Shown: piece by piece, positions 1 to 23,970 of the stretch | Numbering within the stretch: the stretch's first letter is position 1 | Layout: the number at the start of each line of letters is the position of its first letter | Assembly (NCBI RefSeq): GCF_001457615.1 | Contig: NZ_LN831024.1 | Coordinates: 2,940,001 to 2,972,000, forward strand | DNA length: 32,000 nucleotides | Reading direction: 5' to 3' | Origin: Pseudomonas aeruginosa | Lineage (GTDB): Bacteria; Pseudomonadota; Gammaproteobacteria; Pseudomonadales; Pseudomonadaceae | Program-made: the position numbers and the translations under genes | The notes under the pieces: generated by a model | The model's database searches: none | Seen by the model: the letters and a program-made list of their open reading frames with translations, nothing else | Told to the model about the DNA's origin: nothing

Positions 1-1
1 G

Positions 2-106
2 CTGCAAGCCGCGGCGCGACGCATCCACCGCTTGCTGTTCGACGAGGGCGGCGAACCGACGGCGGCCGCGACCCTCGACTTCGCCGATATCCGGCTGGCC
101 CATTGA
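2..106 (+). CDS. 3' end of a CDS entering from upstream (…LDFADIRLAH*); possibly the ATPase of the adjacent ABC transporter
   Basis: Frame is open from the window edge to TGA at 104-106, 17 nt before the next gene's ATG. Function is guessed from context only. Confidence 0.35.
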   Translation: MQAAARRIHRLLFDEGGEPTAAATLDFADIRLAH

Positions 107-122
107 GCAGAGGAATCGATCG

Positions 123-989: not shown

Positions 990-1098
990 GGCGGCGGACG
1001 GGTGGAGTGTTACGGCAACTTTCTCGGCAACTGTTGCGCTGGCGCGGCGGCAAAGCGGAGTAACGTCTTGCCCGCACCCACTTCAAAGGATGGAACGA

Positions 1099-1716
1099 AT
1101 GTCGCTCTCCGTGGATCTGCTGCTGGCGTTCTCCCTGTTCGCCTTCGTCACCTCCGTCACGCCCGGTCCGAACAACACCATGTTGCTGGCCTCGGGGGTC
1201 AACTTCGGTTTCGTCCGCTCCATCCCGCACATCCTCGGGATCAGTTGCGGCTTCTTCATCATGGTGATGGCGGTGGGCTTCGGCCTGGGCACGGTGTTCG
1301 AGGCCTATCCGGTGCTGTACACCATCCTGCGCTACGTCGGCGCGGCCTACCTGCTGTACCTGGCCTGGAAGATCGCCACGTCCGGCCCGGCCGGCAACGA
1401 CCCGGAGGGACGTGGCAAGCCGTTGAGCTACTGGGGCGCGGCGGCGTTCCAGTGGGTCAACCCGAAGGCCTGGGTGATGGCGGTCGGCGCCATAAGCACC
1501 TATACGCCGTTGCAGGGCTACTTCACCAACGTGGTGGTGATCTCGACGGTATTTGCCCTGATCAACGCGCCGACCATCGGAATCTGGGCCGGTTTCGGCA
1601 GCATGCTGCGCAACGTGCTGCGCGATCCGCGCTGGCTGAGGGTGTTCAACGTAGGGATGGCGCTGCTGTTGGTCGCGTCGCTGTACCCGATCCTCGCGGA
1701 AAGCCATTCGGCCTGA
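1099..1716 (+). CDS. ambA: LysE/RhtB-family amino-acid exporter AmbA
   Basis: Family signature FVTSVTPGPNNTMLLASG near the N-terminus and about 6 TM segments. ATG 1099 is preferred over the ORF-track ATG 1090 because AAGGA (1086-1090) is correctly spaced only for 1099. It sits directly upstream of the amb NRPS genes. Confidence 0.85.
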   Translation: MSLSVDLLLAFSLFAFVTSVTPGPNNTMLLASGVNFGFVRSIPHILGISCGFFIMVMAVGFGLGTVFEAYPVLYTILRYVGAAYLLYLAWKIATSGPAGNDPEGRGKPLSYWGAAAFQWVNPKAWVMAVGAISTYTPLQGYFTNVVVISTVFALINAPTIGIWAGFGSMLRNVLRDPRWLRVFNVGMALLLVASLYPILAESHSA

Positions 1717-1728
1717 CCTGTCACCACC

Positions 1729-1744
1729 CTATCAATTGTATTAG
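1729..1744. promoter_or_regulatory. Candidate lux-type (LasR/RhlR-like) box CTATCAATTGTATTAG upstream of ambB
   Basis: CT-N12-AG architecture centred about 76 bp upstream of the ambB ATG. It matches 12/16 positions of the box upstream of chiC at 14732-14747 (shared CTnnCAATTGTnnTAG). Confidence 0.35.
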
Positions 1745-1811
1745 CTCGTAACTCGTCGCCATTTCGTGAAGAGTTTTTCGCTCGGTGCCCAGCCTCGGAA
1801 GGGGGAGAGCG

Positions 1812-4800
1812 ATGCAGGAGCGACATGGCTTACCGTTACGCAGCTTTTCGTCGGGCAAGGCGCTGACCGCGGGACGCGCAGTGCGCCCGGAGGTTGCGCA
1901 GGAGCGGCGCTACCTGCAAGGCGCCCCGCTGGGGCTGGAGTTGCCGGGACGAATCGCCTTGCGCGACCCGCATTGCGCCTGGCAATGGTTCGAGCCGGAG
2001 GCGGCCGCGGAAGCGTTCCCGGCGGCGCACTGGCTGGCGGCGTTCCTGGTACTGCTGGGACGCTACGGCAACGAAGAGATCACCCTGGGCTTTCCCGAGC
2101 CGATCACGGTTCGCGGGCGGCAGGCGCCCGCGCTGCTGCGTTCCGCCTACCGGGCGATGGAGTCGTCCGCCGAACGTAGCGCGCGGCTGGCGGAAGAACT
2201 CGATGACGCCCGGCGGCAGCTATCCGCCGACGGCCAGGAGCGCGCCGCCCTGGCCGGGTGCTGCGCGGTCCAGGTGCTGGCGGCGCGGCCAACGGCGAGC
2301 AGCCCCGGCTGGCTGGCCCTGGTGCTGGCGGCGGACGGCAGCGTCGGCCTGGCTCTGCGCGATCCCCAGTACGACGAATTGCGGCGTATCGCCGGCCATC
2401 TCGCGCGCCTGGCGCGCGGCCTGGTCGACGCCCAGGCCTGCGTCGGCCGGCTGCCCTGGCTGGACGCCGACGAAGAGCGCCGTTTGCAGGCCCTGCGCAG
2501 CGAGCCCCAGGCCGCCCCGTCGCGCGGCGTACTCCACCATCTGTTCGAGGCCCAGGCGCGGCGCACACCGCAGCGCATCGCCGTGCACGCCGCCGACCGT
2601 AGCCTCAGCTATGCCGAGCTGGAGCGCGAAAGCGCCGCGCTCGCCGTGCGCCTGCGCGCCGCCGGGGTGGCTCCGGAGCAGCGGGTCGGGGTCTGCCTGC
2701 GGCGCGACAGCGGCCTGCTGGTCGGCCTGCTTGGCGTGCTCCGCGCCGGCGGTTGCTACGTCCCGCTGGACCCGGCCTATCCGGAGGAGCGGGTGGCCTA
2801 CATGCTCGACGACGCCGACTGCCTGCTGGTGCTGGTCGACGCGAGCACCCGCGAGCGGGTCGCCGCGCTGGGCCGGCCATGCCTGACGCTGGAGGAGGGC
2901 GGCGACCAGGCGAACGACCTGGCGCTGCCCGCGAGCGAGGTCGGCGCCGACCACCTCGCCTACATCATCTACACCTCCGGTTCCACCGGACGCCCCAAGG
3001 GCGTCGCCATCGAGCACGGCAGCGCCCATGCCTTCCTGCGCTGGGCCGGCCAGCACTATGCCGCCGAAGAATGGAGCGGGGTACTGGCGGCGACCTCGGT
3101 GTGCTTCGACCTGTCGGTCTACGAGCTGTTCGGCACCCTGGCCGAAGGCGGCACGCTGCACCTGGTGGAAAACCTGTTCAGCCTGCCGGACTACCCGCGC
3201 CGCGACGAGATCAGCCTGCTCAATACCGTGCCCTCGGTGTGTGCCGCGCTGCTCGCCCTCGGCGACCTGCCGGGCGGGGTGCGCACGCTGAACCTGGCCG
3301 GCGAACCGCTGCGCGGCCACCTGGTGCGACAGATTCGTGGCCAACCCCAGGTACGGCGCCTGGTCAATCTCTACGGGCCGACCGAGGACACCACCTATTC
3401 GACGGCGCACGAACTGGACCTGCACGCCGAAGCGCTCGACGAGCCGCCCATCGGCCGACCGCTGCCCGGCACCACGGTGGAGGTGCTCGACGGCTTCGAG
3501 GCGCCGCTGCCGCTGGGCGTGGCCGGGGAGCTGTACCTCGGCGGCATCGGCCTGGCGCGTGGCTATTTCGGCAAGCCGGAGCAGACCGCCGAGCGTTTCC
3601 GCGTCGATCCGGGCAGCGGCGAGCGCCGCTATCGCACCGGCGACCGCGTACGCATGCGCGAGGACGGCGTGCTGGAACACCTCGGCCGGCTCGACGACCA
3701 GGTCAAGTTCAACGGCTTCCGCATCGAGCTGGGCGAGATCGCCTCGTGCCTGGCGAGTTTTCCCGGGGTGAGCGAAGCCTGCGCCATGCTCACCGAGGAC
3801 AGCGCCGGCCTGCGTCGGCTGGTCGGCTACCTGGCGGCGCCGTTCGCCCCGCCGCTCCAGGCGCTGAACGAGCACCTTGGGCAAAGTCTGCCGCACTACA
3901 TGTTGCCGTCAGCGTTCGTGGTCCTGGCGGAGCTGCCCAAGACGCTCAACGGCAAGATCGACCGCAAGGCCCTGCCGCGTCCCCAGGCGACCGGCGCCGA
4001 GCCCCAGGCGCTGCCCAGCGATCCGCTGGAGCAGGCGCTACACCAGGCCTGGCAGGCGCAGCTTGGTGCGCCGCCGCGCGCCGGACAGGGCTTCTACGCC
4101 GCCGGCGGCGATTCCCTGCGGGCGGTGCACCTGCTCGCGACGCTGCGCCAGCGACTGTCCCGACGCGTACCGTTGCAGGCGTTCGCCGGTGGCCCGGCGA
4201 CCCCCGAGGCCCTGCTGGAACTGCTGCGCCAGGCCGCGCCCGAGGGCGACGAGCCGGAGCCGAGCGCCGGCGCCGCCGGGCTGAGCCTCGCCGAACGGCG
4301 CCTGTGGGTGGCCCAGCAACTGGCGCCGGAGGACACCTCCTACAACCTGCTGGCCCACCTGCGCATAGTCGGCGCCACGGCCGACGCCATCGAACAGGCC
4401 TTGCGCCAGTTGCTGGAACGGCATGTGGCGCTGCGCCGGCGTGTCGAAACGGGCGTCGACGGGCCGCAGCCGCATGCGCTGGCGGCGCATGCGGTGCCCC
4501 TGCAACGCCTGCTGGCGAGCGACGCCGTCCACGCCGAGCGGTTGCTGGAGGATGGCGTGCGCCGTGAGGGCGCGCGAGTCTTCGACCTCGCCCACGAGGC
4601 GCCGGCACGCCTGCTGCTGGTCGTCACCCGCGACAGCGCGCGCGCCGACCTCCTGCTCAGCGTCCATCACTACGCCTTCGACGATGTGTCGCTGGCGGTC
4701 TTTGCCGCGGAACTGAAGACGCTGCTCGATGGCGGTCGCCTGGGCGTGCTCGCCAGTACGCCGGAACAGGTTGCCGCCCGCGAGCGCGCGGCGTTGGCCT

Positions 4801-5561
4801 CGGGACGCCTGGACCGTGTCGCCGAGCGCTGGGCTGAGCGTTTGTTGCCGCTGGCGAAGGCTCCCGGCGCCGCGCCGGCGCGCCCGGAGGAGAGCGGCGG
4901 GCGCGCCGGCCAACGCCTCGCCCTGCCGGTTTCCGCCGCCGTCCATGCCGTCTGCCGGGCGCTGGCCGAACGCACCTCGGTAAGCCCGTTCAGTGCTGCG
5001 CTACAGGCCTTCGCCGAAGTGCTCGGCGCCGAACTGGGCGTCGACGACCTGCTCGTCGGCGTGGCCCTGGCCGGGCGTTCGCGCCTGGAAATGCAGGGGC
5101 TGGTCGGCTGCTTCGTCAACCTCCTGCCGCTGGCGGTCGGCCTGCGTCCGGAGCAGTCCGTGGAGTGGCGCCTGCGCCAGGTCGGCCATGATCTGCTGGA
5201 ACTGCTCGAACACCAGGACGTGCCCCTCGAATGCGTGACCCAGGCCCTGAGCCAGCGCGGCGCCAGCGGCCTGCCGATCCGCATCGCCTGCGGCGCGCAC
5301 AACGGTCGGGCGGCCCCGGCGGTGGATGCCGGGGTGCGCGTCGAAGCCGACTTCATCCCGGTGCCTGGCGCGCGCCTGGACCTGACGCTGTGGCTGGAAG
5401 ACCAGCCGCAGGGTTGGCTGGCCGTCTGGACCGGGGTCAGCGCGATCTTCGACCTGCACCGCATCGAGCGCCTGCACCAGGCCTGGGAGCGGCGCCTGCT
5501 GGCGAATGCCGGCGAACCTATCTCGAAACGCATGTCGCCGGAGGGCTGCAACGCTTCCTGA
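1812..5561 (+). CDS. ambB: Non-ribosomal peptide synthetase AmbB (C-remnant, A, T, C)
   Basis: A-domain cores are present: LSYAELE, YIIYTSGSTGRPKG (about 2959-3000), NLYGPTE, GELYLGGIGLARGY, YRTGD and GRLDDQVKFNGFRIELGEI. The carrier motif is GGDSL (about 4099-4113) and the C-domain motif is HHYAFDDVS (4665-4691). ATG 1812 with RBS GGGGGAGAG is preferred over ORF-track start 1785. Confidence 0.95.
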   Translation: MQERHGLPLRSFSSGKALTAGRAVRPEVAQERRYLQGAPLGLELPGRIALRDPHCAWQWFEPEAAAEAFPAAHWLAAFLVLLGRYGNEEITLGFPEPITVRGRQAPALLRSAYRAMESSAERSARLAEELDDARRQLSADGQERAALAGCCAVQVLAARPTASSPGWLALVLAADGSVGLALRDPQYDELRRIAGHLARLARGLVDAQACVGRLPWLDADEERRLQALRSEPQAAPSRGVLHHLFEAQARRTPQRIAVHAADRSLSYAELERESAALAVRLRAAGVAPEQRVGVCLRRDSGLLVGLLGVLRAGGCYVPLDPAYPEERVAYMLDDADCLLVLVDASTRERVAALGRPCLTLEEGGDQANDLALPASEVGADHLAYIIYTSGSTGRPKGVAIEHGSAHAFLRWAGQHYAAEEWSGVLAATSVCFDLSVYELFGTLAEGGTLHLVENLFSLPDYPRRDEISLLNTVPSVCAALLALGDLPGGVRTLNLAGEPLRGHLVRQIRGQPQVRRLVNLYGPTEDTTYSTAHELDLHAEALDEPPIGRPLPGTTVEVLDGFEAPLPLGVAGELYLGGIGLARGYFGKPEQTAERFRVDPGSGERRYRTGDRVRMREDGVLEHLGRLDDQVKFNGFRIELGEIASCLASFPGVSEACAMLTEDSAGLRRLVGYLAAPFAPPLQALNEHLGQSLPHYMLPSAFVVLAELPKTLNGKIDRKALPRPQATGAEPQALPSDPLEQALHQAWQAQLGAPPRAGQGFYAAGGDSLRAVHLLATLRQRLSRRVPLQAFAGGPATPEALLELLRQAAPEGDEPEPSAGAAGLSLAERRLWVAQQLAPEDTSYNLLAHLRIVGATADAIEQALRQLLERHVALRRRVETGVDGPQPHALAAHAVPLQRLLASDAVHAERLLEDGVRREGARVFDLAHEAPARLLLVVTRDSARADLLLSVHHYAFDDVSLAVFAAELKTLLDGGRLGVLASTPEQVAARERAALASGRLDRVAERWAERLLPLAKAPGAAPARPEESGGRAGQRLALPVSAAVHAVCRALAERTSVSPFSAALQAFAEVLGAELGVDDLLVGVALAGRSRLEMQGLVGCFVNLLPLAVGLRPEQSVEWRLRQVGHDLLELLEHQDVPLECVTQALSQRGASGLPIRIACGAHNGRAAPAVDAGVRVEADFIPVPGARLDLTLWLEDQPQGWLAVWTGVSAIFDLHRIERLHQAWERRLLANAGEPISKRMSPEGCNAS

Positions 5562-5590
5562 CGACCCCGAGCCTCCCACGGAGAACAGCG

Positions 5591-6679
5591 ATGGAACGAA
5601 CAGCTCCCAGTCTCACCGGTCGCGGCTTCGCCCGGCCGCGCAATCTCAGCCCGCGCAGCAGCGAGGCGCTGGTGCGGCGCCCGGCGGCGGAGCGCGACGG
5701 CCTGCCGCTGCTGATCGAGGCACAGGCTCCCGGCCTGTCCCTGGCCGACTGGATTCGCGAGCAGGGCCAGTCCCTGCACGACGACCTGAACCTGGCTGGC
5801 GGCCTGTTGCTGAGAGGCTTCGAGGTCGACTCGGCAGAGCGCTTCCGCGCAGCCGCCGCTGCCTTCGCCCCGCAACTGCTCGACTACAAGGAGCGTTCCT
5901 CGCCGCGTAGCCAGGTCAGCGGCGAGGTCTACACCTCCACCGAGCATCCGGTGGACCAGCCGATCTTCCTGCATAACGAGCAGTCCTATACCGCCGACTG
6001 GCCGCTGTACATCATGTTCCATTGCCAGGTCGCGCCGCTCGAGGGCGGCGCCACCCCGGTGGCGGCCAACCGGCTGGTGCTCCGCCACCTGCCGGACGAA
6101 TTGCTGGAACGCTTCGGGCGCCTGGGCATCCTCTACGTGCGCAACTACCGCGCCGGCCTCGGCCTGTCCTGGCGCGAAGCGTTCCAGACCGACAGCCGCG
6201 CCGAGGTCGAGGCGTTCTGCGCTGAGCACCGGATCGCCCATGCCTGGATCGGCGACGAGCACCTGCGCACCTGGCAGAGGCGCGCGGCGTTCCAACGCCA
6301 CCCGTATACCGGCGAGCGCCTGTGGTTCAACCACGGCATGTTCTTCCATGCCACCAGTCTCGAGCCGGGCCTGCGCGATGCGCTGCTGCGCAGCGTCGCC
6401 GAGGAAGACCTGCCGTACCAGACCTACTACGGCGATGGCAGCCCGATCGAGGCGCAGACCCTGGCGACCATCCGCAGCGCCATAGACCGCGAGACGCGGC
6501 GCTTCGACTGGCGCGTGGGCGACGTGCTGATCCTCGACAACATGCTCGCCCAGCACGGCCGCGAGCCGTTCCGCGGGCCGCGACGGATCCTCACCATCAT
6601 GTCCACGCCGTATTCCAGCCTGGCGCCCGCCGACGTCCCGCCGACACCTTCGCGCCTGGCGCTCGGAGGTGCCGCATGA
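5591..6679 (+). CDS. ambC: TauD/TfdA-family Fe(II)/2-oxoglutarate-dependent oxygenase AmbC
   Basis: H-x-E facial-triad motif LHNEQSY (HNE at 5972-5980) and distal His in NMLAQHGREPF. ATG 5591 has RBS GGAGA. The ORF-track start 5231 lies inside ambB and is rejected. Confidence 0.92.
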   Translation: MERTAPSLTGRGFARPRNLSPRSSEALVRRPAAERDGLPLLIEAQAPGLSLADWIREQGQSLHDDLNLAGGLLLRGFEVDSAERFRAAAAAFAPQLLDYKERSSPRSQVSGEVYTSTEHPVDQPIFLHNEQSYTADWPLYIMFHCQVAPLEGGATPVAANRLVLRHLPDELLERFGRLGILYVRNYRAGLGLSWREAFQTDSRAEVEAFCAEHRIAHAWIGDEHLRTWQRRAAFQRHPYTGERLWFNHGMFFHATSLEPGLRDALLRSVAEEDLPYQTYYGDGSPIEAQTLATIRSAIDRETRRFDWRVGDVLILDNMLAQHGREPFRGPRRILTIMSTPYSSLAPADVPPTPSRLALGGAA

Positions 6680-7695
6680 GCGCCTCGTTCAGCGCGCCGC
6701 GCCTGCGCCCCCGGCAGCTCTCGGCCGGCGACCTGGTGGAGGAAAGCCTGCTCGACCCGGCCAACGACTACCTGCGCATCGTCCGCGCGCGCCAGCCGGG
6801 CATGGACCTGCGGCAATGGATCGCCGCCGCCGGCGCAGGGCTGCGCGACAGCCTGCTGCGGCATGGCGGCATCCTGTTTCGTGGCTTCGCGGTAGACGGA
6901 GCGGAGGGCTTCTCCCAGGCGGTACAAAGCTTTTCGCCGAACATGCTCGACTACCTGGAGCGCGCGGCGGCACGCCAGGAAGTGGCGCACCGGGTGTTCA
7001 CCTCCACCGAGTTCTCGCCGGACGGCTGGATTCCGCCGCACCACGAGATGTCCTACTCGCACAACTGGCCGAGCTATATCCACTTCTACTGCCAGACACC
7101 GCCCGCCACCCAGGGCCGCACGCCCCTGGCCGACGAGCGCCGGGTCAGCGCTCGGATACCCGAGGCGATCAGGCAGCGCTTCCTCCGCCATGGGGTGTGC
7201 TACGTGCGCAACTACGGGCCGGAGATCGACCTGACCTGGCAGGAAGGCTTCCAGACCGACAGTCGCGCCGAGGTCGAGGCCTACTGCCGGCAGACCGGTA
7301 CCCAATGGACCTGGCTCGACGACCAGCGCCTGAATACCCGCCAGGTACGCCAGGCGATGGTGCGCCACCCGCTCAGCGGCGAGACGCTGTGGTTCAACCA
7401 CGCGCACATGTTCCATGTCTCCAACATGCCGCCGGCCCTGGCCCGGGCCTTGCTCGACGAGGTCGGCGAACAGGGCCTGCCGCGCAACGCCTACTACGGC
7501 GACGGCAGCCCGATCGAGGCGGAGGTGCTGGACACCATCCGCGCCGCCTACCGCGAGGAAACCCGCGCGTTCGCCTGGGAGCGCGGCGATGTCCTGATGC
7601 TCGACAACTTCATCAGCGTCCACGGCCGCGAGCCGTACACCGGCGAGCGCAAGGTGCTGGTGGCGATGACCGACCTGCATGTCCACCAACCCTGA
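6676..7695 (+). CDS. ambD: TauD/TfdA-family Fe(II)/2-oxoglutarate-dependent oxygenase AmbD (paralogue of AmbC)
   Basis: The start ATG overlaps the ambC stop (ATGA at 6676-6679). Motifs are PPHHEMSY (7039-7047) and NFISVHGREPY. Clear paralogy to AmbC (GFQTDSRAEVEA, WFNH, YYGDGSPIEA). Confidence 0.92.
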   Translation: MSASFSAPRLRPRQLSAGDLVEESLLDPANDYLRIVRARQPGMDLRQWIAAAGAGLRDSLLRHGGILFRGFAVDGAEGFSQAVQSFSPNMLDYLERAAARQEVAHRVFTSTEFSPDGWIPPHHEMSYSHNWPSYIHFYCQTPPATQGRTPLADERRVSARIPEAIRQRFLRHGVCYVRNYGPEIDLTWQEGFQTDSRAEVEAYCRQTGTQWTWLDDQRLNTRQVRQAMVRHPLSGETLWFNHAHMFHVSNMPPALARALLDEVGEQGLPRNAYYGDGSPIEAEVLDTIRAAYREETRAFAWERGDVLMLDNFISVHGREPYTGERKVLVAMTDLHVHQP

Positions 7696-7714
7696 ACCCG
7701 TGCGAGGGATAGCC

Positions 7715-16484: not shown

Positions 16485-16513
16485 TTTACCATCACAGCAT
16501 AACTTGTTATAAC
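16485..16513 (+). promoter_or_regulatory. Candidate sigma70 promoter of the GntR-led operon
   Basis: -35 TTTACC (16485-16490), a 17-nt spacer and -10 TATAAC (16508-16513), in the most AT-rich part of the chiC-GntR spacer. Confidence 0.4.
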
Positions 16514-16517
16514 AAGT
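16502..16517. promoter_or_regulatory. Perfect 16-bp palindrome ACTTGTTATAACAAGT, candidate GntR/HutC-family operator
   Basis: Exactly self-complementary with the GT…AC core characteristic of GntR-family operators. It overlaps the candidate -10 and lies 32 bp upstream of the regulator's ATG. Confidence 0.55.
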
Positions 16518-16548: not shown

Positions 16549-17298
16549 ATGGGCAAACTGCTCCCGCTTTCCCCCGTGCCGCTGTACAGCCAGCTCAAGG
16601 AGCTGCTGCGCGGGCGCATCCTCGACGGCGTCTACCCGCCGCTCAGCCGCATGCCCTCGGAGAACGAGCTGGGCAAGGCCTTCGACGTCAGCCGCATCAC
16701 CGTGCGCCAGGCGCTCGGCGACCTGCAGAAGGAAGGGCTGATCTTCAAGATCCACGGCAAGGGCACCTTCGTCGCCCGGCCGAAGGCGTTCCAGAACGTC
16801 AGCACCCTGCAAGGCCTGGGCGAGTCCATGACGCAGATGGGCTACGAGGTCATCAACCGCCTGCATGGCCTGCGCTACGTGCCGGCCGGCGCGCGGGTGG
16901 CCGAGCGCCTGCGGGTGGAAGAGGGCAGCCCTGTGTGCGAGATCAAGCGGGTGCGGCTGGTCAACCGCGAGCCGGTTTCGCTGGAAGTCACCTACCTGCC
17001 GCAGGCGCTCGGCGAGCGCCTGGAGAAGGCCGACCTGGTGACCCGCGACATCTTCCTGATCCTCGAGAACGATTGCGGCATTCCCCTCGGCCATGCCGAC
17101 CTGGCCATCGACGCGGTGCTCGCCGATGCCGACCTGACCCGCGCCCTGGCGGTCGAGGAGGGCGCGCCGATCATGCGTATCGAGCGCCTGACCCATGCCG
17201 CCGACGGCGCGCCGCTGGACTTCGAATACCTCTACTACCGCGGCGACGCTTTCCAGTATCGCCTGCGCATCGATCGGCAGAAGGGAGAGCGGGCATGA
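16549..17298 (+). CDS. GntR-family transcriptional regulator, HutC subfamily (wHTH plus UTRA effector domain)
   Basis: N-terminal LYSQLKELLRGRILDGVYPPLSRMPSENELGKAFDVSRITVRQALGDLQKEGLIFKIHGKGTFV is a canonical GntR wHTH, and the C-terminal half is UTRA-like. ATG 16549 is preferred over GTG 16516, which lies inside the operator/promoter. Confidence 0.88.
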   Translation: MGKLLPLSPVPLYSQLKELLRGRILDGVYPPLSRMPSENELGKAFDVSRITVRQALGDLQKEGLIFKIHGKGTFVARPKAFQNVSTLQGLGESMTQMGYEVINRLHGLRYVPAGARVAERLRVEEGSPVCEIKRVRLVNREPVSLEVTYLPQALGERLEKADLVTRDIFLILENDCGIPLGHADLAIDAVLADADLTRALAVEEGAPIMRIERLTHAADGAPLDFEYLYYRGDAFQYRLRIDRQKGERA

Positions 17299-19019
17299 AC
17301 ACCCTGGAGCAGGAATACGACATCGTGGTGATCGGCGGCGGCACCGCCGGGCCGATGGCGGCGATCAAGGCCAAGGAGCACGACCGCGAACTGCGCGTGC
17401 TGCTGGTGGACAAGGCCAACGTCAAGCGCAGCGGCGCCATCAGCATGGGCATGGACGGGTTGAACAACGCCATCGTCCCCGGCCACGCCACGGCCGAGCA
17501 GTACACCCGGGAAATCACCGTGGCCAACGACGGCATCGTCAACCAGGCGGCGGTATACGCCTATGCCAGCCACAGCTTCGAGACCCTGCGGCAGCTGGAT
17601 CGCTGGGGCGTCAGGTTCGAAAAGGACGAGACCGGCGACTATGCGGTGAAGAAGGTCCACCACATGGGCGCCTATGTGCTGCCGATGCCGGAAGGGCACG
17701 ACATCAAGAAGGTGCTCTACCGCCAGCTCAAGCGTGCGCGGATCCCCATCGCCAACCGCCTGGTCTGCACCCGCCTGCTCACCGATGCCGAGGGCGCGGT
17801 GAACGGCGTACTCGGTTTCGACTGCCGCAGCGGCGACTTCCATGTGATCCGCGCCAAGGCGGTGATCCTTTGCTGCGGCGCGGCGGGCCGCCTGGGCCTG
17901 CCGTCCTCGGGCTACCTGATGGGTACCTACGAGAACCCGACCAACGCCGGCGACGGCTACGCCATGGCCTATCATGCCGGCGCCGAGCTGGCCAACCTGG
18001 AATGCTTCCAGATCAACCCGCTGATCAAGGACTACAACGGCCCGGCCTGTGCCTACGTCACCGGCCCGCTGGGTGGCTATACCGCCAACGCCAGGGGTGA
18101 GCGCTTCATCGAATGCGACTACTGGAGCGGGCAGATGATGTGGGAGTTCCACCAGGAACTCGAAGGCGGCAATGGCCCGGTGTTCCTCAAGCTCGACCAC
18201 CTGGCGGAGGAAACCATCCAGACCATCGAGGACATCCTCCATGGCAACGAACGCCCCAGTCGCGGGCAGTTCCACGCCGGGCGCGGCACCGACTACCGCC
18301 AGCAGATGGTCGAGATGCACATTTCCGAGATCGGCTTCTGCTCCGGCCACTCGGCCTCCGGCGTGTGGGTCAACGAGAAGGCCGAGACCAGCGTGAAGGG
18401 CCTCTACGCAGCCGGCGACATGGCCGCGGTGCCGCACAACTACATGCTCGGCGCCTTCACCTATGGCTGGTTCGCCGGGCGCAACGCCGCCGAATACGTC
18501 GCCGGGCGCGCCTTCAGCGCGGTCGACAGCGCCCAGGTCGAGCGCGAGCGTGCGCGGATCGAGGCGCCGCTGCTGCGCGAGCATGGCCTGCCGGCGGCGC
18601 AGGTGGAGTACAAGCTGCGCCGGCTGGTCAACGACTACCTGCAACCGCCCAAGGTGACCCGCAAGATGGAATTGGGCCTGCAACGCATCCAGGCCATCGC
18701 CGAGGATCTGGAGCGGATCAAGGCGGACAACCCCCACGAGCTGATGCGCGCCCTGGAAGTCAGCGTTATCCGCGATTGCGCGGAGATGGCCGCGCGCGCC
18801 TCGCTGTTCCGCACCGAGAGCCGCTGGGGCCTGTACCACCACCGGGTGGACTATCCGCGGCGCGACGACGCTGCCTGGTTCTGCCACGCGCACCTGAAGA
18901 AGGACGAGCAGGGACGCATGGCCAGCTTCAGGAAACCGGTCGAACCCTACCTGTTCGCCATCGACGAGGGCGAACAGCAGGCCTACCAGCGCCTGCGGCT
19001 GAGGAACGACGCCGCCTAG
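17295..19019 (+). CDS. FAD-dependent oxidoreductase of the fumarate reductase/succinate dehydrogenase flavoprotein superfamily, AprA-like
   Basis: Rossmann motif DIVVIGGGTAGPMAA, GLYAAGD near the C-terminal FAD contact, and a tail RTESRWGLYHHRVDYPRRDD that I associate with APS-reductase alpha-type proteins. The start overlaps the regulator's stop (ATGA at 17295-17298). Confidence 0.8.
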   Translation: MNTLEQEYDIVVIGGGTAGPMAAIKAKEHDRELRVLLVDKANVKRSGAISMGMDGLNNAIVPGHATAEQYTREITVANDGIVNQAAVYAYASHSFETLRQLDRWGVRFEKDETGDYAVKKVHHMGAYVLPMPEGHDIKKVLYRQLKRARIPIANRLVCTRLLTDAEGAVNGVLGFDCRSGDFHVIRAKAVILCCGAAGRLGLPSSGYLMGTYENPTNAGDGYAMAYHAGAELANLECFQINPLIKDYNGPACAYVTGPLGGYTANARGERFIECDYWSGQMMWEFHQELEGGNGPVFLKLDHLAEETIQTIEDILHGNERPSRGQFHAGRGTDYRQQMVEMHISEIGFCSGHSASGVWVNEKAETSVKGLYAAGDMAAVPHNYMLGAFTYGWFAGRNAAEYVAGRAFSAVDSAQVERERARIEAPLLREHGLPAAQVEYKLRRLVNDYLQPPKVTRKMELGLQRIQAIAEDLERIKADNPHELMRALEVSVIRDCAEMAARASLFRTESRWGLYHHRVDYPRRDDAAWFCHAHLKKDEQGRMASFRKPVEPYLFAIDEGEQQAYQRLRLRNDAA

Positions 19020-19104
19020 GGCCCCACGCCCCGGCGTAGTACCGCTAGACACCGAGCCCGCCGCCACGAAAGCGGGCCAGATCGAACCACGAGGACCGCG
19101 TGCC

Positions 19105-19350
19105 ATGGCCTACCGACCCCAGGACATCTTCTTCCGCAGCAGCGCCCCGGTGACCATCGACGAAGACCGCTGCATCGCCGACAAGGGCTGCACCGTCTGC
19201 GTCGAGGTCTGCCCGATGGACCTGCTGGCCATCGATCCGACGACCCGCAAGGCCTACATGGCCTACGACGAGTGCTGGTACTGCATGCCTTGCGAAAAGG
19301 ACTGCCCGACCGGCGCGGTGAAGGTCGAGATTCCCTACCTGCTGCGCTGA
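19105..19350 (+). CDS. 2x[4Fe-4S] ferredoxin, AprB-N-terminal-like
   Basis: 81 aa with two cluster motifs: C-x5-C-x2-C-x3-CP (CIADKGCTVCVEVCP) and C-x2-C-x2-C-x3-CP (CWYCMPCEKDCP). RBS GAGGA is upstream. Confidence 0.85.
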   Translation: MAYRPQDIFFRSSAPVTIDEDRCIADKGCTVCVEVCPMDLLAIDPTTRKAYMAYDECWYCMPCEKDCPTGAVKVEIPYLLR

Positions 19351-19484
19351 CGCCCGCTCCCGGCAAGCGAGGCAGAACCCGCCATCCGGCCACTCCCGGA
19401 CGCCACTCTGAAACACCCCTCGTTTCCCACCACCGTCCGGGTGGCGGAGACGATTCCCATGACCATGATTCGAGGGGAATCCCC

Positions 19485-20891
19485 ATGCGACTGCGTGCAA
19501 TCCTGGCCAGCCTGGCGCTGGCCCTGACTTCCCTGGGTGCCCAGGCGGAAACCATCCGCGTGGCCATCGGCACTCAGGACACCACCATCAACTGCGCCGC
19601 CGGCGGGCTGCTGATCCGCGAGCTGGGCCTGCTGGAGAAATACCTGCCGCGCGACGGCCGCTACAAGGATGCGGACTACCGGGTGGAGTGGAAGAACTTC
19701 ACCAGTGGCGCACCGCTGACCAACGAGATGGTCGCCGGCAAGCTCGACTTCGGCGCCATGGCCGACTTTCCCGGCACCTTCAACGGTGTGGCCTTCGCCG
19801 CCGCCGGCAAGCGCAGCCTGTTCATCAGCGTGCTGTCCGGCAGCACCCGTGGCAGCGGCAACGGCATCGTGGTACCGAGCGGCTCGCCGGTGCAGTCGCT
19901 GGCCGAACTGAAAGGCCAGACCATCTCCGTACCGTTCGCCTCCACTGCCCATGGCATGCTGCTGCGCGCGGTGGCGGCGCAAGGCTGGGACCCGCAGCGC
20001 GACGTGACCATCATCGCCCAGCCGCCGGAAATCGCCGGTTCGGCCTTGCAGGCGAACAAGATTGCCGCCCATGCCGACTTCGTACCCTTCGCCGAGCTGT
20101 TCCCCAATCGCGGCTTCGCCCGCAAGATCTACGACGGTTCCCAGGCCAACGCGCCGACCTTCCATGGCGCGCTGGTGGACGCCGCCTACGCCGAGCGCTA
20201 TCCGGAGGTGGTGGTGGCCTACCTGCGGGCGAGCATCGAAGCCAATCGACTGCTGGCCGCCGAACCGGAGAAATACAGCGAGCTGATCGAGAAGGTCACC
20301 GGCATCGAGGCCGAGGTCAATTACCTGTTCCACGGTCCGCTCGGCCTGCAGACCCGCGACCAGGCCTGGAAACCCGAATACCGCCAGGCGCTGGCGACCT
20401 CCATCGACACCCTGAAGCTGCTGAAGAAGGCCGACCGTGGGCTGGACGTCGAGCGTTTCGTCGACGACCGCTACATCCGCGAGGCCTACCGTCAGGCCGG
20501 GCTGGACTACCAGGCGGCGCTGGCAGACTACGCACCGTCGCCGCTGCGCGCCAGCGACGCGCGCAGCGGCCGGCCGATCGAGGAGTTCGAACGGGTAGCG
20601 CAGATCTGGGTGAAGGGCGAGGCCAGGGTGCGCCATTACGCTTCGCCGGAGTCGGCCCTGGCCGATCTTGCCGAGCTGAAGGCGCAGGGCAAGGCGATTC
20701 GTGCGATCTACGCCCAGGATCGTGACAGCGGGATCAAGCTGCTGGCCAACCAGGCGTGGTTCGTCCGCGACGGCGAGGGTCGCCTCAACGCCTTCCTGCT
20801 CCGCGAGCAGGCCCAGGACTATGCCCGCCGCCATGGCGGCGAGGTACGCGACTTTGCCGCCGCCAGCCAGCAGGCGCTGGCGCTCCGCTGA
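19485..20891 (+). CDS. Periplasmic ABC substrate-binding protein (NMT1/SsuA-like) with an extra C-terminal domain of about 120 aa
   Basis: Signal peptide MRLRAILASLALALTSLGAQA/ETI and RBS GAGGGGA. The body resembles sulfonate/nitrate/HMP-type binding proteins, and the tail from about 20520 onward lies beyond the usual fold. ORF-track start 19272 is rejected. Confidence 0.8.
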   Translation: MRLRAILASLALALTSLGAQAETIRVAIGTQDTTINCAAGGLLIRELGLLEKYLPRDGRYKDADYRVEWKNFTSGAPLTNEMVAGKLDFGAMADFPGTFNGVAFAAAGKRSLFISVLSGSTRGSGNGIVVPSGSPVQSLAELKGQTISVPFASTAHGMLLRAVAAQGWDPQRDVTIIAQPPEIAGSALQANKIAAHADFVPFAELFPNRGFARKIYDGSQANAPTFHGALVDAAYAERYPEVVVAYLRASIEANRLLAAEPEKYSELIEKVTGIEAEVNYLFHGPLGLQTRDQAWKPEYRQALATSIDTLKLLKKADRGLDVERFVDDRYIREAYRQAGLDYQAALADYAPSPLRASDARSGRPIEEFERVAQIWVKGEARVRHYASPESALADLAELKAQGKAIRAIYAQDRDSGIKLLANQAWFVRDGEGRLNAFLLREQAQDYARRHGGEVRDFAAASQQALALR

Positions 20892-20915
20892 GGCGGGCGT
20901 CTTCGGAGTCCGCCC

Positions 20916-21713
20916 ATGAGTTCGCTTCCGATCTCCCGACCCTGGCGCTGGGCCACCCGCGCCGCTTCGCTGGCGGCCTGCCTGGCGTTCTGGCAGCTCG
21001 CCGCCGGTCTGCAACTGAATCTGGGCCTGGTGACCTTCGCCAACGTGCCGACGCCCGGTGCGGTGTTGCTGGCGGCCTGCAACCTGGCCCAGTCCAGCGT
21101 GCTCCTGGCGCACCTCGGCGCCAGTCTGGCGCGGGTCTTCGCCGGCTATCTGCTGGCCGCCGCGCTGGGCATCGCCCTCGGCCTGGCGATCGGCCGCTCG
21201 GCCTGGGCCGAGGCCTTGCTGCTGCCGCCGCTGGAAGTGCTGCGGCCGATCCCGGCGGTGGCCTGGATTCCCCTGGCGATCCTGATGTTCCCTTCGTCGG
21301 AGGCCTCGATGATCTTCATTACCTTCACCGGCGCGCTGTTCCCGATCCTGCTCAATACCGTGCATGGCGTGGAGGCGCTCGATCCGCGCCTGCTGGCTTC
21401 GGCGCGCAGCCTGGGGGCGGGGCGCCGGGCGCTGCTGCGCGAGGTGCTGCTGCCCGGCGCCGGACCGGGCATCTTCACCGGCCTGGCGATCGGCATGGGC
21501 ACCTCCTGGTTCTGCCTGGTGACCGCCGAGATGATCTCCGGGCAATGGGGACTGGGTTACTACACCTGGGCTTCCTACAACATCCAGAACTACGACGAGG
21601 TGGTGGTCGGCATGCTGCTCATCGGCCTCTTCGGCATGGGCAGTAGTGGGTTGGTGAAGCGCGTCGGCGCGTCGCTGACGCCCTGGTACGCGGCGGGAGG
21701 CAAGGTCCGATGA
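20916..21713 (+). CDS. ABC transporter permease (SsuC/TauC-like family)
   Basis: 265 aa, polytopic, with EAA-type loop LLASARSLGAGRRALLREVLLPGAGPGIFTGL. Confidence 0.88.
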   Translation: MSSLPISRPWRWATRAASLAACLAFWQLAAGLQLNLGLVTFANVPTPGAVLLAACNLAQSSVLLAHLGASLARVFAGYLLAAALGIALGLAIGRSAWAEALLLPPLEVLRPIPAVAWIPLAILMFPSSEASMIFITFTGALFPILLNTVHGVEALDPRLLASARSLGAGRRALLREVLLPGAGPGIFTGLAIGMGTSWFCLVTAEMISGQWGLGYYTWASYNIQNYDEVVVGMLLIGLFGMGSSGLVKRVGASLTPWYAAGGKVR

Positions 21714-22564
21714 CGACGGCCGGCAACAGCCTGGGGCGCATCCAGATCCGCGACCTGAGCATCCGCCTGGGGCAGGGGAGCGAAGCCTTCGAGGCGGTCC
21801 GCGATCTGAGCCTGGAGGCGCGGCCGGGCGAGTTCGTCTGCCTGCTCGGGCCTTCGGGATGCGGCAAGTCGACCCTGCTCGGCGCCCTGGCCGGCCACCT
21901 GCGGCCAAGCGCCGGCAGCGTGAGGGTCGACGGCCGGAGCGTGGAAGGACCTTCGCCGCAGCGTGGCATGGTATTCCAGCAGCACACCCTGTTCCCCTGG
22001 CGGCGGGTCCGCGACAACGTCGCCTTCGGCCTGAAGATGCAGGGCCTGGCCCGCGCCGAGCGCAACCGGCGCGCCATGGAGATGCTCGGACTGGTGGGGC
22101 TGGCGGACTTCGCCGGGCGCTGGCCCGGCCAACTGTCCGGGGGTATGCAGCAGCGCGTGGAGATCGCCCGGGTGCTGGTCAACCGGCCGCGCCTGCTGCT
22201 GATGGACGAGCCCTTCGGCGCCCTCGACGCGCAGACCCGGCTGAAGATGCAGACCTTGCTGCTGGACGTATGGGCGCGGGTCCGCACCACGGTGCTGTTC
22301 GTCACCCACGACATCGACGAGGCCCTGTACCTGGCGGACAGGGTGCTGGTGATGAGCCCCCGTCCGGGACGGATCATCGCCGACCTGGCGCTGGACTTCC
22401 CGCGCCCTCGCGACACCCGGCTGGTGACCAGCGCCGACTTCGTGCGCCTGAAACGCCACTGCCTGGAACTGCTCGACCACGACGACGGCCGCCAGTTGCC
22501 GCGCCTGACCCCGCTCGGCTTGCCGCCGGGCATCACCCCGGACCGACTGCGGATCGCCATATGA
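21710..22564 (+). CDS. ABC transporter ATP-binding protein
   Basis: Walker A GPSGCGKST, signature LSGGMQQR, Walker B LLLMDEPF and H-loop VTHD. The start overlaps the permease stop (ATGA at 21710-21713). Confidence 0.93.
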   Translation: MTTAGNSLGRIQIRDLSIRLGQGSEAFEAVRDLSLEARPGEFVCLLGPSGCGKSTLLGALAGHLRPSAGSVRVDGRSVEGPSPQRGMVFQQHTLFPWRRVRDNVAFGLKMQGLARAERNRRAMEMLGLVGLADFAGRWPGQLSGGMQQRVEIARVLVNRPRLLLMDEPFGALDAQTRLKMQTLLLDVWARVRTTVLFVTHDIDEALYLADRVLVMSPRPGRIIADLALDFPRPRDTRLVTSADFVRLKRHCLELLDHDDGRQLPRLTPLGLPPGITPDRLRIAI

Positions 22565-23526
22565 CCTGTAAAAACGCCACCCTGCCCGAAATCCTCGAAC
22601 TGTCGCCGCGCCTGGAGGACGCCGACCCCGGCGTACGCCGCCTGGCGCTGATCGAACTGGCCGACCTGGAGCTGCCGGAGGCGCTGCCGTTGCTGATTGC
22701 GGCCCTGCGCGGCGATCCCGACCCCGGCGTGCGCGGCGAGGCCGCGCGCCTGCTGGAGGCCTGGGAGGAAGACGCGGTGGTCGATGCGCTCTGTGCGGCC
22801 CTGGCCGATCCGGTGCCGGCGGTGGCCGATGCCGCCGCGCAGAGCCTTGGCGAACTCAAGGAACCGGCCGTCGGGCGGCGCCTGCTGCCGTGGCTCGGGC
22901 ATGCCGATGCCTTCGTCCGCGCCAGCGTATTGCGTGCGTTGCGCGAACTGCGCCTGGAGGAGAGCGCCGTGCCGGCCCTGGCCGCCCTCGGCGATCCGCA
23001 GGCGGCGGTGCGCCGCGAGGCGGTGGCGGTACTCGGCTGGCTCCGCCACCAGCCGGCCCTGGCCGAACTGGCCAGGCTGGCCAGCGCCGATGTCGACCCG
23101 GAGGTACGCCGGGCGGCCACCGGCGCCCTCGGCCTGAGCCGCGAGGCGACGGTGCTGCCGGCGCTCTGCGCGGCGCTGGCGGACGCTCAATGGCAGGTTC
23201 GCGAAGAGGCGGCGACGACCCTTGGCAAGCTGGGCCGGGAGGAGGCCGGCGAGCCGCTGCTGAAGGCCCTGGCGGACGACTACTGGCAGGTCCGCCTGCG
23301 CGCCGCGCGGGCGCTCGGGCGCTTGCGCCACCGCCCGGCGCGGGAGGCGCTGGAAGCATTGCTCGGCCATCCCATCGGCAACCTGCGCAAGGAGGCCGCC
23401 CTGGCCCTCGGCGAACTGGCGGACCCGGCCTCGGCCCAGGCCTTGCGGGTCGCCGAAGGCGACGGCGATCCCGAGGTGCGCAAGGCGGTGCGCATCGCCC
23501 TGGCGCAACTGCGGATGCCGGCATGA
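22561..23526 (+). CDS. HEAT-repeat (PBS-lyase-type) protein
   Basis: 321 aa made almost entirely of about ten 31-aa repeats of the form L..aL.D.d..VR..Aa.aLG.l. The start overlaps the ATPase stop (ATGA at 22561-22564). Confidence 0.85.
   Translation: MTCKNATLPEILELSPRLEDADPGVRRLALIELADLELPEALPLLIAALRGDPDPGVRGEAARLLEAWEEDAVVDALCAALADPVPAVADAAAQSLGELKEPAVGRRLLPWLGHADAFVRASVLRALRELRLEESAVPALAALGDPQAAVRREAVAVLGWLRHQPALAELARLASADVDPEVRRAATGALGLSREATVLPALCAALADAQWQVREEAATTLGKLGREEAGEPLLKALADDYWQVRLRAARALGRLRHRPAREALEALLGHPIGNLRKEAALALGELADPASAQALRVAEGDGDPEVRKAVRIALAQLRMPA
22600..23510 (+). repeat. Intragenic tandem array of about 10 HEAT-like units (about 93-nt period)
   Basis: Recurrent D(P/A)xxxVR(x)2A(x)3LG units, e.g. 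DADPGVRRLA, DPDPGVRGEA, DPQAAVRREA, DVDPEVRRAA, DAQWQVREEA, DDYWQVRLRA, DGDPEVRKAV. Confidence 0.7.
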
Positions 23527-23804
23527 CCCAGCCGCCGCTGCGCCTGCGCAATTCCGCCAGGGACGGCTGGCTGATGCTCGAATGGGCGGACGGCGCGGTC
23601 AGCCGGATCGACCATGCGCGCCTGCGCGCCGCCTGTCCCTGTGCGCAATGCCGGGCGCAGCGCCTGCGCGGACGGATCGTCGCGGCGGAGCAGGGCGTGC
23701 GCCTGCGCGATATCCGCCTGCAGGGCTACGGCGTGCAGTTGCTGTTCGACGATGGTCACGAGCGCGGTATCTACCCCTGGTCCTATCTGCGCGACGAACT
23801 CTGA
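23523..23804 (+). CDS. DUF971-family small protein (gamma-butyrobetaine-hydroxylase N-terminal-like Zn/Cys domain)
   Basis: 93 aa with LEWADG…RLRAACPCAQC (CPCAQC at 23634-23651) and the C-terminal DDGHERGIYPWSYLR typical of DUF971. The start overlaps the HEAT gene's stop (ATGA at 23523-23526). Confidence 0.75.
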   Translation: MTQPPLRLRNSARDGWLMLEWADGAVSRIDHARLRAACPCAQCRAQRLRGRIVAAEQGVRLRDIRLQGYGVQLLFDDGHERGIYPWSYLRDEL

Positions 23805-23970
23805 GGCGGGTATTGTTCCGCTCCCGGCAACAACGTGAAGCGTGTTCATGGGTTTCAGATTGTTGCCAATCCCTGCGTTGTCCCCGTCCCGCCACGGCCA
23901 CCACCCGGGTGACCCGCTCGGAGGCCCGCCGCCTGGCTTCGTTGTCGTTTCCGTAACACTGTTTTCCAGC

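Follow-up and report, generated by a model that had tools for sequence, protein, structure and literature searches.

What is the function of an eight-gene operon that couples an importer of the sulfonate type to a soluble flavin and iron-sulfur enzyme? The genes in question occupy positions 16549-23804 of a 32,000-nucleotide (nt) stretch of Pseudomonas aeruginosa DNA (NZ_LN831024.1, positions 2,940,001 to 2,972,000; hereafter the window), where eight open reading frames lie on the same (+) strand. We take them to be PA2299 (regulator), PA2298 (flavoprotein), PA2297 (ferredoxin), PA2296 (binding protein), PA2295 (permease), PA2294 (ATPase), PA2293 (HEAT-repeat protein) and PA2292 (DUF971 protein); the flavoprotein is 99-100% identical to P. 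aeruginosa entries. The answer we consider probable is that this is a sulfur-scavenging operon, induced by sulfate starvation, which releases sulfur from an imported sulfo-compound by means of an enzyme resembling AprAB. Support is good for the scavenging role but not for the reaction.

An indication of physiological role comes from a 2025 RNA-seq study of strain PAO1 that compared sulfur-free medium with the same medium containing 500 uM sulfate, positive values denoting higher expression in starvation (PMC12581299). In the expression values from that study used here, PA2299 to PA2293 were 9- to 20-fold up in sulfur-free medium, with log2 changes of +3.93 (PA2299), +3.92 (PA2298), +4.30 (PA2297), +3.46 (PA2296), +3.25 (PA2295), +3.74 (PA2294) and +4.06 (PA2293). 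The ssu comparison genes PA3443 and PA3444 responded to a similar degree (+4.1 and +4.5), and the tau genes were likewise co-induced; among the neighbours of the operon, chiC (-5.09) and PA2301 (+0.63) were not. The medium contained succinate, and no substrate was supplied (PMC12581299). Since sulfur withdrawal in succinate medium was enough for induction, with nothing added as a substrate, we regard the operon as sulfur-scavenging and not carbon-catabolic, and as part of the PAO1 sulfate-starvation stimulon. A published transcriptome of cells exposed to N-acetylcysteine recorded PA2298 and PA2299 as down by 0.7 log2. An earlier note on this DNA, made without database searches, had described a catabolic-looking operon of no established function with an unusually placed repressor. 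Its view of a single unit matching no known pathway stands; the catabolic look gives way to induction by sulfur withdrawal alone, the absent physiological context is supplied by stimulon membership and by the mild repression under N-acetylcysteine, and the position of the repressor proved ordinary, as described below.

The gene order and boundaries reported earlier were reproduced, and Pfam and NCBIfam agreed on every domain. Four junctions are ATGA start/stop overlaps (at 17295, 21710, 22561 and 23523) and the remaining spacers measure 85, 134 and 24 nt; we infer a single transcript across the eight genes and stoichiometric production of the proteins. When one genome per species was scanned, at least 584 stretches proved to encode a relative. 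The eight proteins were mapped on 87 loci, made up of 80 of those stretches and seven plasmid or chromid loci, to which the locus counts in this text refer. An identical eight-gene order was found in about 50 of the 87, in Pseudomonas, Burkholderia/Paraburkholderia, Acinetobacter, Massilia, Herbaspirillum and others. Five loci place the HEAT gene ahead of the transporter, and about 15 have a core-only form, with the GntR, flavoprotein, ferredoxin, HEAT and DUF971 genes and no transporter. Rearranged versions of the set were present in Rhizobium, on the Acidithiobacillus caldus plasmid pTcM1, in Pseudanabaena and in Tsukamurella, and variants extend across Alphaproteobacteria, Acidithiobacillus, cyanobacteria and actinobacteria. 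This shared arrangement is far beyond chance. The earlier note had proposed a neighbourhood-conservation check on the flavoprotein, and the recurrence of the set across phyla bears out its picture of one unit that combines a sulfonate/nitrate/taurine-family importer, a soluble flavin adenine dinucleotide (FAD) and Fe-S pair, and two accessory proteins.

The sulfur-scavenging reading also rests on the sulfur genes that adjoin the operon in other genomes. In Pseudanabaena a TauE/SafE sulfite exporter and YeiH lie next to it; in Cupriavidus pinatubonensis the adjoining genes encode an SfnB-like protein of the acyl-CoA-dehydrogenase family, an LLM monooxygenase and SsuA. Additional NitT/TauT transporter genes lie near the operon in 15-27 loci, and LLM monooxygenases in seven. 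An SrpI-type 2A encapsulin adjoins it in 10 loci (L016, L043, L048, L052, L054, L058, L067, L069, L074 and L077) from Pseudomonas, Cupriavidus, Paraburkholderia, Acinetobacter and Aquabacterium, accompanied by a ~700-amino-acid (aa) cysteine desulfurase, a hexapeptide (SAT-like) gene and a rhodanese; this set is another module of sulfur starvation, one that accompanies the operon from genome to genome. The core operon itself is self-contained, and most genomes have no oxygenase gene in it.

What had been labelled simply a flavoprotein (17295-19019, 574 aa, FAD_binding_2/Succ_DH_flav_C) is an FAD-dependent catalytic subunit resembling AprA, the family of adenosine 5'-phosphosulfate (APS) and 3'-phosphoadenosine 5'-phosphosulfate (PAPS) reductases, an identity that narrows the likely chemistry. 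It scored 1137 bits on NF006131 (cutoff 587), which NCBI types as an 'equivalog' under a generic name only, and 849 bits on NF010374, an 898-aa model of a flavoprotein-plus-HEAT fusion. Both AprA models remained below their cutoffs (TIGR02061, 186 bits against 641.75; NF005331, 292 bits against 557), so the curated AprA score was not reached. The best solved relative was 8a8o_A, the alpha subunit of the Methanothermococcus thermolithotrophicus PAPS reductase (E 6e-62, 213 bits, about 33% identity), followed by Archaeoglobus fulgidus AprA (E 1e-42, 149 bits), with succinate dehydrogenases much lower. The flavoprotein is the most conserved member of the operon, with 80-82% identity between Pseudomonas and Burkholderia where the HEAT protein has 54-60%; it is 57-64% identical to actinobacterial and cyanobacterial relatives. 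Clustering of a library at 50% identity leaves the family with essentially two clusters of full-length sequences, one for the stand-alone protein and one for the fusion; there is then a drop to relatives that share 37-44% identity, and PAPS-reductase-like proteins follow at about 33%.

Residue equivalences were taken from HMMER alignments and checked on 88 family members and more distant representatives. The key residues of AprA are reported (Fritz 2002; Schiffer 2006) to be Asn74, Arg265 and His398 in A. fulgidus numbering. The flavoprotein has the 'RSGA' motif of non-covalent FAD binding and keeps equivalents of Asn74 (N57) and His398 (H352), each invariant in 88 of 88 sequences. The position of Trp234 is a tyrosine throughout (Y212, 88/88), a conservative swap, and that of Tyr95 is an invariant glutamate (E73). 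The catalytic Arg265 is replaced by leucine (L243) in all 88, and the PAPS-reductase-like relatives P0338, P0387 and 8a8o retain the arginine. Specificity depends on Gln145 in APS reductase and on K120/R121/S122 in the M. thermolithotrophicus PAPS reductase (PMC10322725); in place of that loop the family has a longer, invariant VHHxGxYVLPMPEGH at residues 121-135. Four cysteines, C237, C252, C349 and C495, are invariant in the 88 sequences. The first two are specific to the family and by alignment fall within segments lining the AprA substrate channel, C349 lies three residues ahead of the active-site His, and C495 is common to the relatives at 37-44% identity. The family has about 240 invariant positions in all, substrate-channel segments included. 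The 37-44% clade of full-length relatives itself (P0311, P0313, P0315, P0318, P0321, P0325 and P0327) is also without an Arg265 equivalent, and C237 and C252 are missing from it except in P0318.

Judged by these residues, the flavoprotein is an AprA-derived enzyme that presumably acts on a different substrate and is not an APS/PAPS reductase. Like the M. thermolithotrophicus PAPS reductase (8A8O; PMC10322725), it is an AprA-fold FAD subunit paired with a small 2x[4Fe-4S] subunit without the long AprB tail, and it shares the non-covalent FAD motif, the Asn74 and His398 equivalents and an assimilatory sulfur context. Unlike that enzyme it has the leucine at Arg265, a replaced K120/R121/S122 loop and extra invariant cysteines, and its hosts are aerobes; its operon partners are HEAT, DUF971, GntR and a sulfonate-type importer, whereas 8A8O and the AprAB-like proteins are associated with Sat, APS kinase or PAP phosphatase. 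AprAB-like paralogues of anaerobes (Clostridia and others) were proposed to act in sulfur assimilation (PMC8477390), and later work showed PAPS reductase activity for one of them (PMC10322725). The flavoprotein family of the operon is distinct from both the AprAB-like clade and the PAPS reductase. With the dissimilatory APS reductase AprAB of A. fulgidus (1JNR/2FJA) it shares the fold, the cofactor set, the Asn74 and His398 equivalents and, conservatively, the Trp234 position, but neither Arg265 nor Tyr95 is kept, there is no AprB tail, Qmo partner or Sat, and the genes are induced by sulfur starvation in an aerobe.

The partner subunit is an 81-aa AprB-like 2x[4Fe-4S] ferredoxin without the AprB C-terminal tail (19105-19350). 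It gave Fer4 dicluster Pfam matches and matched the aprB model TIGR02060 (3.9e-10), and its structural matches were AprB (3gyx_B, 4.5e-10; 1jnr_B, 2.4e-7) and the PAPS reductase beta subunit (8a8o_C, 2e-6). The pair thus has the AprAB-type arrangement, a small 2x[4Fe-4S] beta subunit encoded directly 3' of the alpha subunit and tail-less like the beta subunit of PAPS reductase. The ferredoxin gene adjoins the flavoprotein gene in nearly all complete loci; in Tsukamurella, ABC genes intervene. Published transposon sequencing (Tn-seq) called this gene 'essential', a call that is unreliable for a gene so small. On A. caldus pTcM1 (L003:10102-14035) the GntR, flavoprotein, ferredoxin and HEAT genes are followed by an FdxA-type ferredoxin and a 1153-aa protein of the pyridine-nucleotide-disulfide-oxidoreductase family, a plausible candidate for the chain that feeds the enzyme with electrons from NAD(P)H by way of ferredoxin.

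The PBS-type HEAT-repeat protein (22561-23526, 321 aa, HEAT_2 1.7e-77) matches the C-terminal third of the fusion model NF010374. Fusions of flavoprotein and HEAT protein of ~890-910 aa, with HEAT at the C-terminus, occur in Tsukamurella and in Nocardia, Rhodococcus and their relatives, the latter group contributing at least 120 clusters; sulfur-omics papers on Gordonia and Rhodococcus made no mention of the fusion gene. Nearly every complete locus encodes the HEAT protein, either on its own or within such a fusion, so its physical association with the flavoprotein is almost certain. In structure it is closely related only to the consensus-designed alpha-Rep proteins, which marks it as a generic binding scaffold. 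The last gene encodes a 93-aa DUF971 protein (GBBH-like N-terminal domain; 23523-23804) with a CxCxxC motif, matching PF06155 over residues 10-90 (1.7e-21) and PDB 3luu (1.7e-15). By analogy it may be a helper in Fe-S maintenance or insertion: DUF971 has been linked to Fe-S maintenance by the cofitness of other family members, not of the paralogue in this operon, and in Pseudanabaena an Mrp/NBP35 Fe-S carrier occupies the DUF971 position.

The importer consists of a 468-aa periplasmic substrate-binding protein (19485-20891) with a signal peptide, an NMT1/SsuA/TauA-like domain and a C-terminal NosL-like domain, a NitT/TauT-family permease of 265 aa (20916-21713; BPD_transp_1, 9e-21) and a NitT/TauT-family ATPase of 284 aa (21710-22564; ABC_tran, 1.8e-34) whose gene has ATGA overlaps at both ends. 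The binding protein reached neither family score (SsuA_fam, 111.7 bits against a cutoff of 163.5; TauA, 82.4 against 304), and its structural matches, SsuA 2x26 (6.6e-15) and TauA 6ssy (1.9e-14), have the superfamily fold in common. The permease resembles NtrB, SsuC and TauC and the ATPase resembles TauB and SsuB, all below cutoff. As in SsuABC/TauABC, all three parts are of the NitT/TauT family with SsuA/TauA, SsuC/TauC and TauB/SsuB as the nearest models, and PA2296-PA2294 are starvation-induced; in contrast to those systems, the binding protein is ~150 aa longer owing to the NosL-like domain, and the operon has no SsuD- or TauD-type oxygenase. The extra domain (~130 aa, about 20475-20888) is conserved; searched as a profile it matched NosL 7og7 (E 1.6e-4), and as a single sequence against the PDB it gave no match. 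A divergent subclade of binding proteins (L007, L079, L081, L087 and L089) has cysteines (LCK/LCN) aligned with the NosL 'lCGM' motif, which we take to be the Cu-binding site of NosL, and the main clade, P. aeruginosa included, has no cysteine at that position.

The first gene encodes a 249-aa GntR-family regulator (16549-17298) whose stop overlaps the flavoprotein start (ATGA). A GntR winged-helix helix-turn-helix domain (PF00392, 7.5e-20) together with a UTRA effector domain (PF07702, 8.6e-38) places it in the HutC subfamily, and it remained under the cutoff of every NCBIfam named regulator model (HutC, PhnF, PhnR and TreR). A repressor as the first gene had been thought unusual. About 80 of 87 loci have the regulator gene directly 5' of the flavoprotein gene and in the same orientation, accompanied by a HutC-type palindromic operator, and Bacillus subtilis gntR, the founding GntR member, likewise heads its operon, gntRKPZ. 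A perfect 16-bp palindrome, ACTTGTTATAACAAGT, at 16502-16517 is the presumed operator of the GntR repressor; it lies 32 nt 5' of the regulator ATG and is present once in the window. A consensus, ACTTGTyATrACAAGT, occurs roughly 25-75 nt 5' of the GntR start in most loci (113-132 nt in two) and recurs in Burkholderia, Acinetobacter, Massilia, Herbaspirillum and Acidithiobacillus caldus. Its location directly 5' of the regulator gene suggests autoregulation from one upstream promoter. The likeness to the HutC, PhnF and NagR/DasR repressors thus covers the GntR helix-turn-helix and UTRA domains, a palindromic operator with a GT...AC core and probable autoregulation; the differences are that the PA2299 regulator scores under all named equivalog cutoffs and that the output is induction by sulfur starvation. 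The adjacent chitinase gene chiC (14922-16373), on the same strand, is oppositely regulated in the values used from the PAO1 study (log2 -5.1, against about +4 for the operon; PMC12581299), and there is a sharp regulatory boundary within the 175-nt gap between chiC and the operon, which holds the palindrome.

A cell model that draws these features together would begin with the HutC-type GntR repressor, autoregulated from the first gene of the operon, sitting on the 16-bp palindrome and releasing the promoter when sulfur is short. The SsuABC/TauABC-like importer, using the binding protein with its extra NosL-like domain, would bring in an anionic sulfo-compound, from which the cytoplasmic heterodimer of the AprA-like FAD subunit and the AprB-like 2x[4Fe-4S] subunit could free assimilable sulfur, most likely as sulfite. 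Electrons would come from the ferredoxin pool of the cell, and no O2 would be needed. The HEAT-repeat protein might bind the flavoprotein as a structural or docking subunit, and the DUF971 protein might help to install or repair the Fe-S clusters. In this scheme we infer the role of the repressor, the direction of electron flow, sulfite as the product and the class of substrate. More specifically, and only tentatively, we propose a new class of enzyme that would have arisen from APS/PAPS reductase and consist of the flavoprotein, the ferredoxin and the HEAT protein, in which low-potential electrons and the family-specific active-site cysteines would cleave the C-S, O-S or S-S bond of the imported sulfo-compound without O2 and release sulfite.

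Several observations weigh against release of sulfur from an imported compound. The transporter-less form, in about 15 loci, means that the substrate of the enzyme need not be an imported compound and could be an intracellular metabolite, and a flavoprotein so extremely conserved is more readily reconciled with a universal substrate than with diverse environmental sulfonates. The changes from Arg265 to Leu and Tyr95 to Glu, together with the rebuilt specificity loop, leave N5-sulfite chemistry not assured. An AlphaFold2 model of the flavoprotein, built from a 51-sequence alignment, had a mean predicted local distance difference test score (pLDDT) of 51.6, and below 50 for residues 194-357, so the conserved cysteines could not be placed in it. 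LysR-type regulators, CysB among them, are the ones to which sulfur-starvation induction in Pseudomonas is usually ascribed, and since induction of the operon needs no added substrate, the true switch may be CysB. Annotation resources and the literature yielded no characterised member of the family, only transcriptome and Tn-seq tables and generic names, with no substrate, product or phenotype; the inability of the earlier note to match the operon to a known pathway is in keeping with this, with the generic name of NF006131 and with literature searches that returned no functional study. The loss of Arg265, the transporter-less clusters and the extreme conservation together keep alive two alternatives, an electron-supply role like that of AsfAB and an enzyme of thiol or sulfane-sulfur metabolism.

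In the first of these, which we think unlikely, the flavoprotein and ferredoxin would be an electron-supply module that shuttles electrons to oxygenases encoded elsewhere (SsuD, MsuD or other LLM or di-iron enzymes), and these would desulfonate the imported compound. The precedent is asfRABC of Pseudomonas putida S-313, published as encoding a flavoprotein 'reductase', a ferredoxin and a binding protein and as needed for the use of arylsulfonates as a sulfur source, with AsfA and AsfB described as a reductase/ferredoxin electron-transport pair that complements ssu. Both systems have a fumarate-reductase-superfamily flavoprotein followed by a ferredoxin and both belong to sulfur scavenging under sulfate limitation, and the order flavoprotein, ferredoxin, binding protein matches asfABC. 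The LLM monooxygenase genes that adjoin the operon in seven loci and in C. pinatubonensis are in line with such a role, and one source labels the Rhodococcus fusion 'reductase (alkanesulfonate metabolism)'. The asf system differs in being LysR-regulated and without a HEAT or DUF971 gene. Against the electron-supply role, the core operon in most genomes is self-contained and has no oxygenase, and ~240 invariant positions that include the substrate channel and the Asn74 and His398 equivalents would be hard to explain for a mere shuttle.

The flavoprotein is also not AsfA by the markers available. The published asfA marker primers asfAF1all and AsfBtoA had no match at up to 3 mismatches in the operon or in the homologous locus of Variovorax. 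Both match Cupriavidus metallidurans CH34 at L009:22881-24862 on chromosome 2 (Rmet_4334/5), the replicon on which the C. metallidurans genome paper puts AsfA/AsfB. The CH34 AsfA is 23% identical to the flavoprotein of the operon and scores 56 bits on NF006131 (cutoff 587), and CH34 chromosome 2 has no close homologue of the operon flavoprotein. The 'all-asfA' primer encodes LSGMEF where PA2298-type genes of Pseudomonas encode LANLECF (5 mismatches), and from the primer sequence the AsfA of P. putida S-313 is most likely of the CH34 type. Primers, alignment and the hidden Markov model (HMM) score thus rule out the flavoprotein as AsfA, with AsfA judged by the CH34 marker gene and not by the S-313 sequence; by the same comparisons the asfA marker gene belongs to a different, distantly related family. 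PAO1 is not known to use arylsulfonates unless given asfRAB, which weighs against functional equivalence with AsfAB. In CH34 (L009:22881-26014; 927.9-931.0 kb) a fatty-acid-desaturase-family (membrane di-iron) gene lies 5' of asfA/asfB on the same strand, with TctC and rhodanese genes on the opposite strand; the desaturase-family neighbour suggests that AsfAB may feed electrons to a di-iron oxygenase.

We give a similarly low probability to a thiol/disulfide or sulfane-sulfur enzyme, that is, a ferredoxin-dependent reductase of S-S or S-SO3 bonds (thiosulfate, S-sulfocysteine, persulfides or a disulfide) that would recycle or mobilise reduced sulfur, internal or imported, in starvation. The invariant, family-specific C237 and C252, channel-lining by alignment, and C349 near the active-site His would suit such chemistry, and the flavoprotein resembles the thiol:fumarate reductase TfrA (165 bits); the transporter-less loci and the SrpI encapsulin, cysteine desulfurase and rhodanese genes adjoining the operon in 10 loci would also agree with it. 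Yet the proximity of the cysteines in space is hypothetical, there is no thiol-disulfide CxxC motif, and the binding protein is of the sulfonate type, like SsuA and TauA, and not of the CysP/Sbp or cystine type.

Much less probable is a second ferredoxin-dependent APS/PAPS reductase of the true AprAB type that would serve as a reserve for CysH under sulfur shortage. In its favour are the AprAB-type PAPS reductase as nearest solved relative, the AprB-like partner subunit and the induction of the genes by sulfur starvation, but the invariant leucine at a position where PAPS-reductase-like relatives keep arginine, the replaced specificity loop and HMM scores far under the AprA cutoffs rule the flavoprotein out as an APS/PAPS reductase, and a sulfonate-type importer would be pointless for APS reduction. 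A pathway for catabolism of a sulfonate or related anion as a carbon or energy source is scarcely credible. Catabolic operons do typically combine a HutC-type repressor with a substrate importer, but here induction followed the removal of sulfur from succinate medium without any added inducer, no enzymes for further carbon processing are encoded in the operon, and its neighbours are sulfur-assimilation genes.

On the reading preferred here, this is a sulfate-starvation operon for organosulfur use, built on an AprAB-derived enzyme instead of an oxygenase. It is as strongly induced as ssu in sulfur-starved P. aeruginosa. Several hundred species have it, major opportunistic pathogens and plant-associated bacteria among them, and its flavoprotein is among the most conserved proteins of its size still without a function (57-89% identity across four phyla). 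If the enzyme does release sulfur reductively, this would be a new reaction of the sulfur cycle, and an O2-independent route of organosulfur assimilation in aerobes and facultative anaerobes (P. aeruginosa, Acinetobacter baumannii, Burkholderia and Nocardia among them), parallel to the O2-dependent Ssu, Tau, Msu and Ats systems. Such a route would explain sulfur acquisition in anoxic niches, for example cystic-fibrosis mucus and biofilms, and would assign a role to PBS-type HEAT repeats and to DUF971, both widespread 'accessory' domains. In metagenome surveys, PA2298-type genes should not be scored as asfA (arylsulfonate use) or as aprA (sulfate respiration).

Signals of transcription in the window are faint. 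A scan with consensus promoters and terminators gave no sigma-70-like site, and terminator-like sites only at chance level; the intergenic folds are weak (z -2.0, -1.7 and +0.4). A hairpin on the (+) strand at 23826-23867, 22 nt past the last stop codon, is an inverted repeat with 14-nt arms that are 86% complementary, without a T-run (-34.6 kcal/mol, z = -1.7), and may, with weak support, mark the end of the transcript. At 134 nt, the spacer that separates the ferredoxin gene from the binding-protein gene (19351-19484) is unusually long; it contains two hairpins (-49 kcal/mol, z = -2.0), which might allow different levels of the enzyme and transporter halves. By domain calls the operon is flanked by chiC on its upstream side and by an OprB-family porin and a pyrroloquinoline quinone (PQQ) glucose dehydrogenase on the other. 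Further upstream, window positions 1-14702 encode an ABC-transporter permease (123-989), a LysE-type exporter (1090-1716), two non-ribosomal peptide synthetase genes (1785-5561 and 7679-14092), two TauD-family dioxygenases (about 5231-7712) and a YbaK/tRNA-editing-domain gene (14055-14702); past the permease, we take this region to be the ambABCDE antimetabolite (amb toxin) cluster and PA2301.

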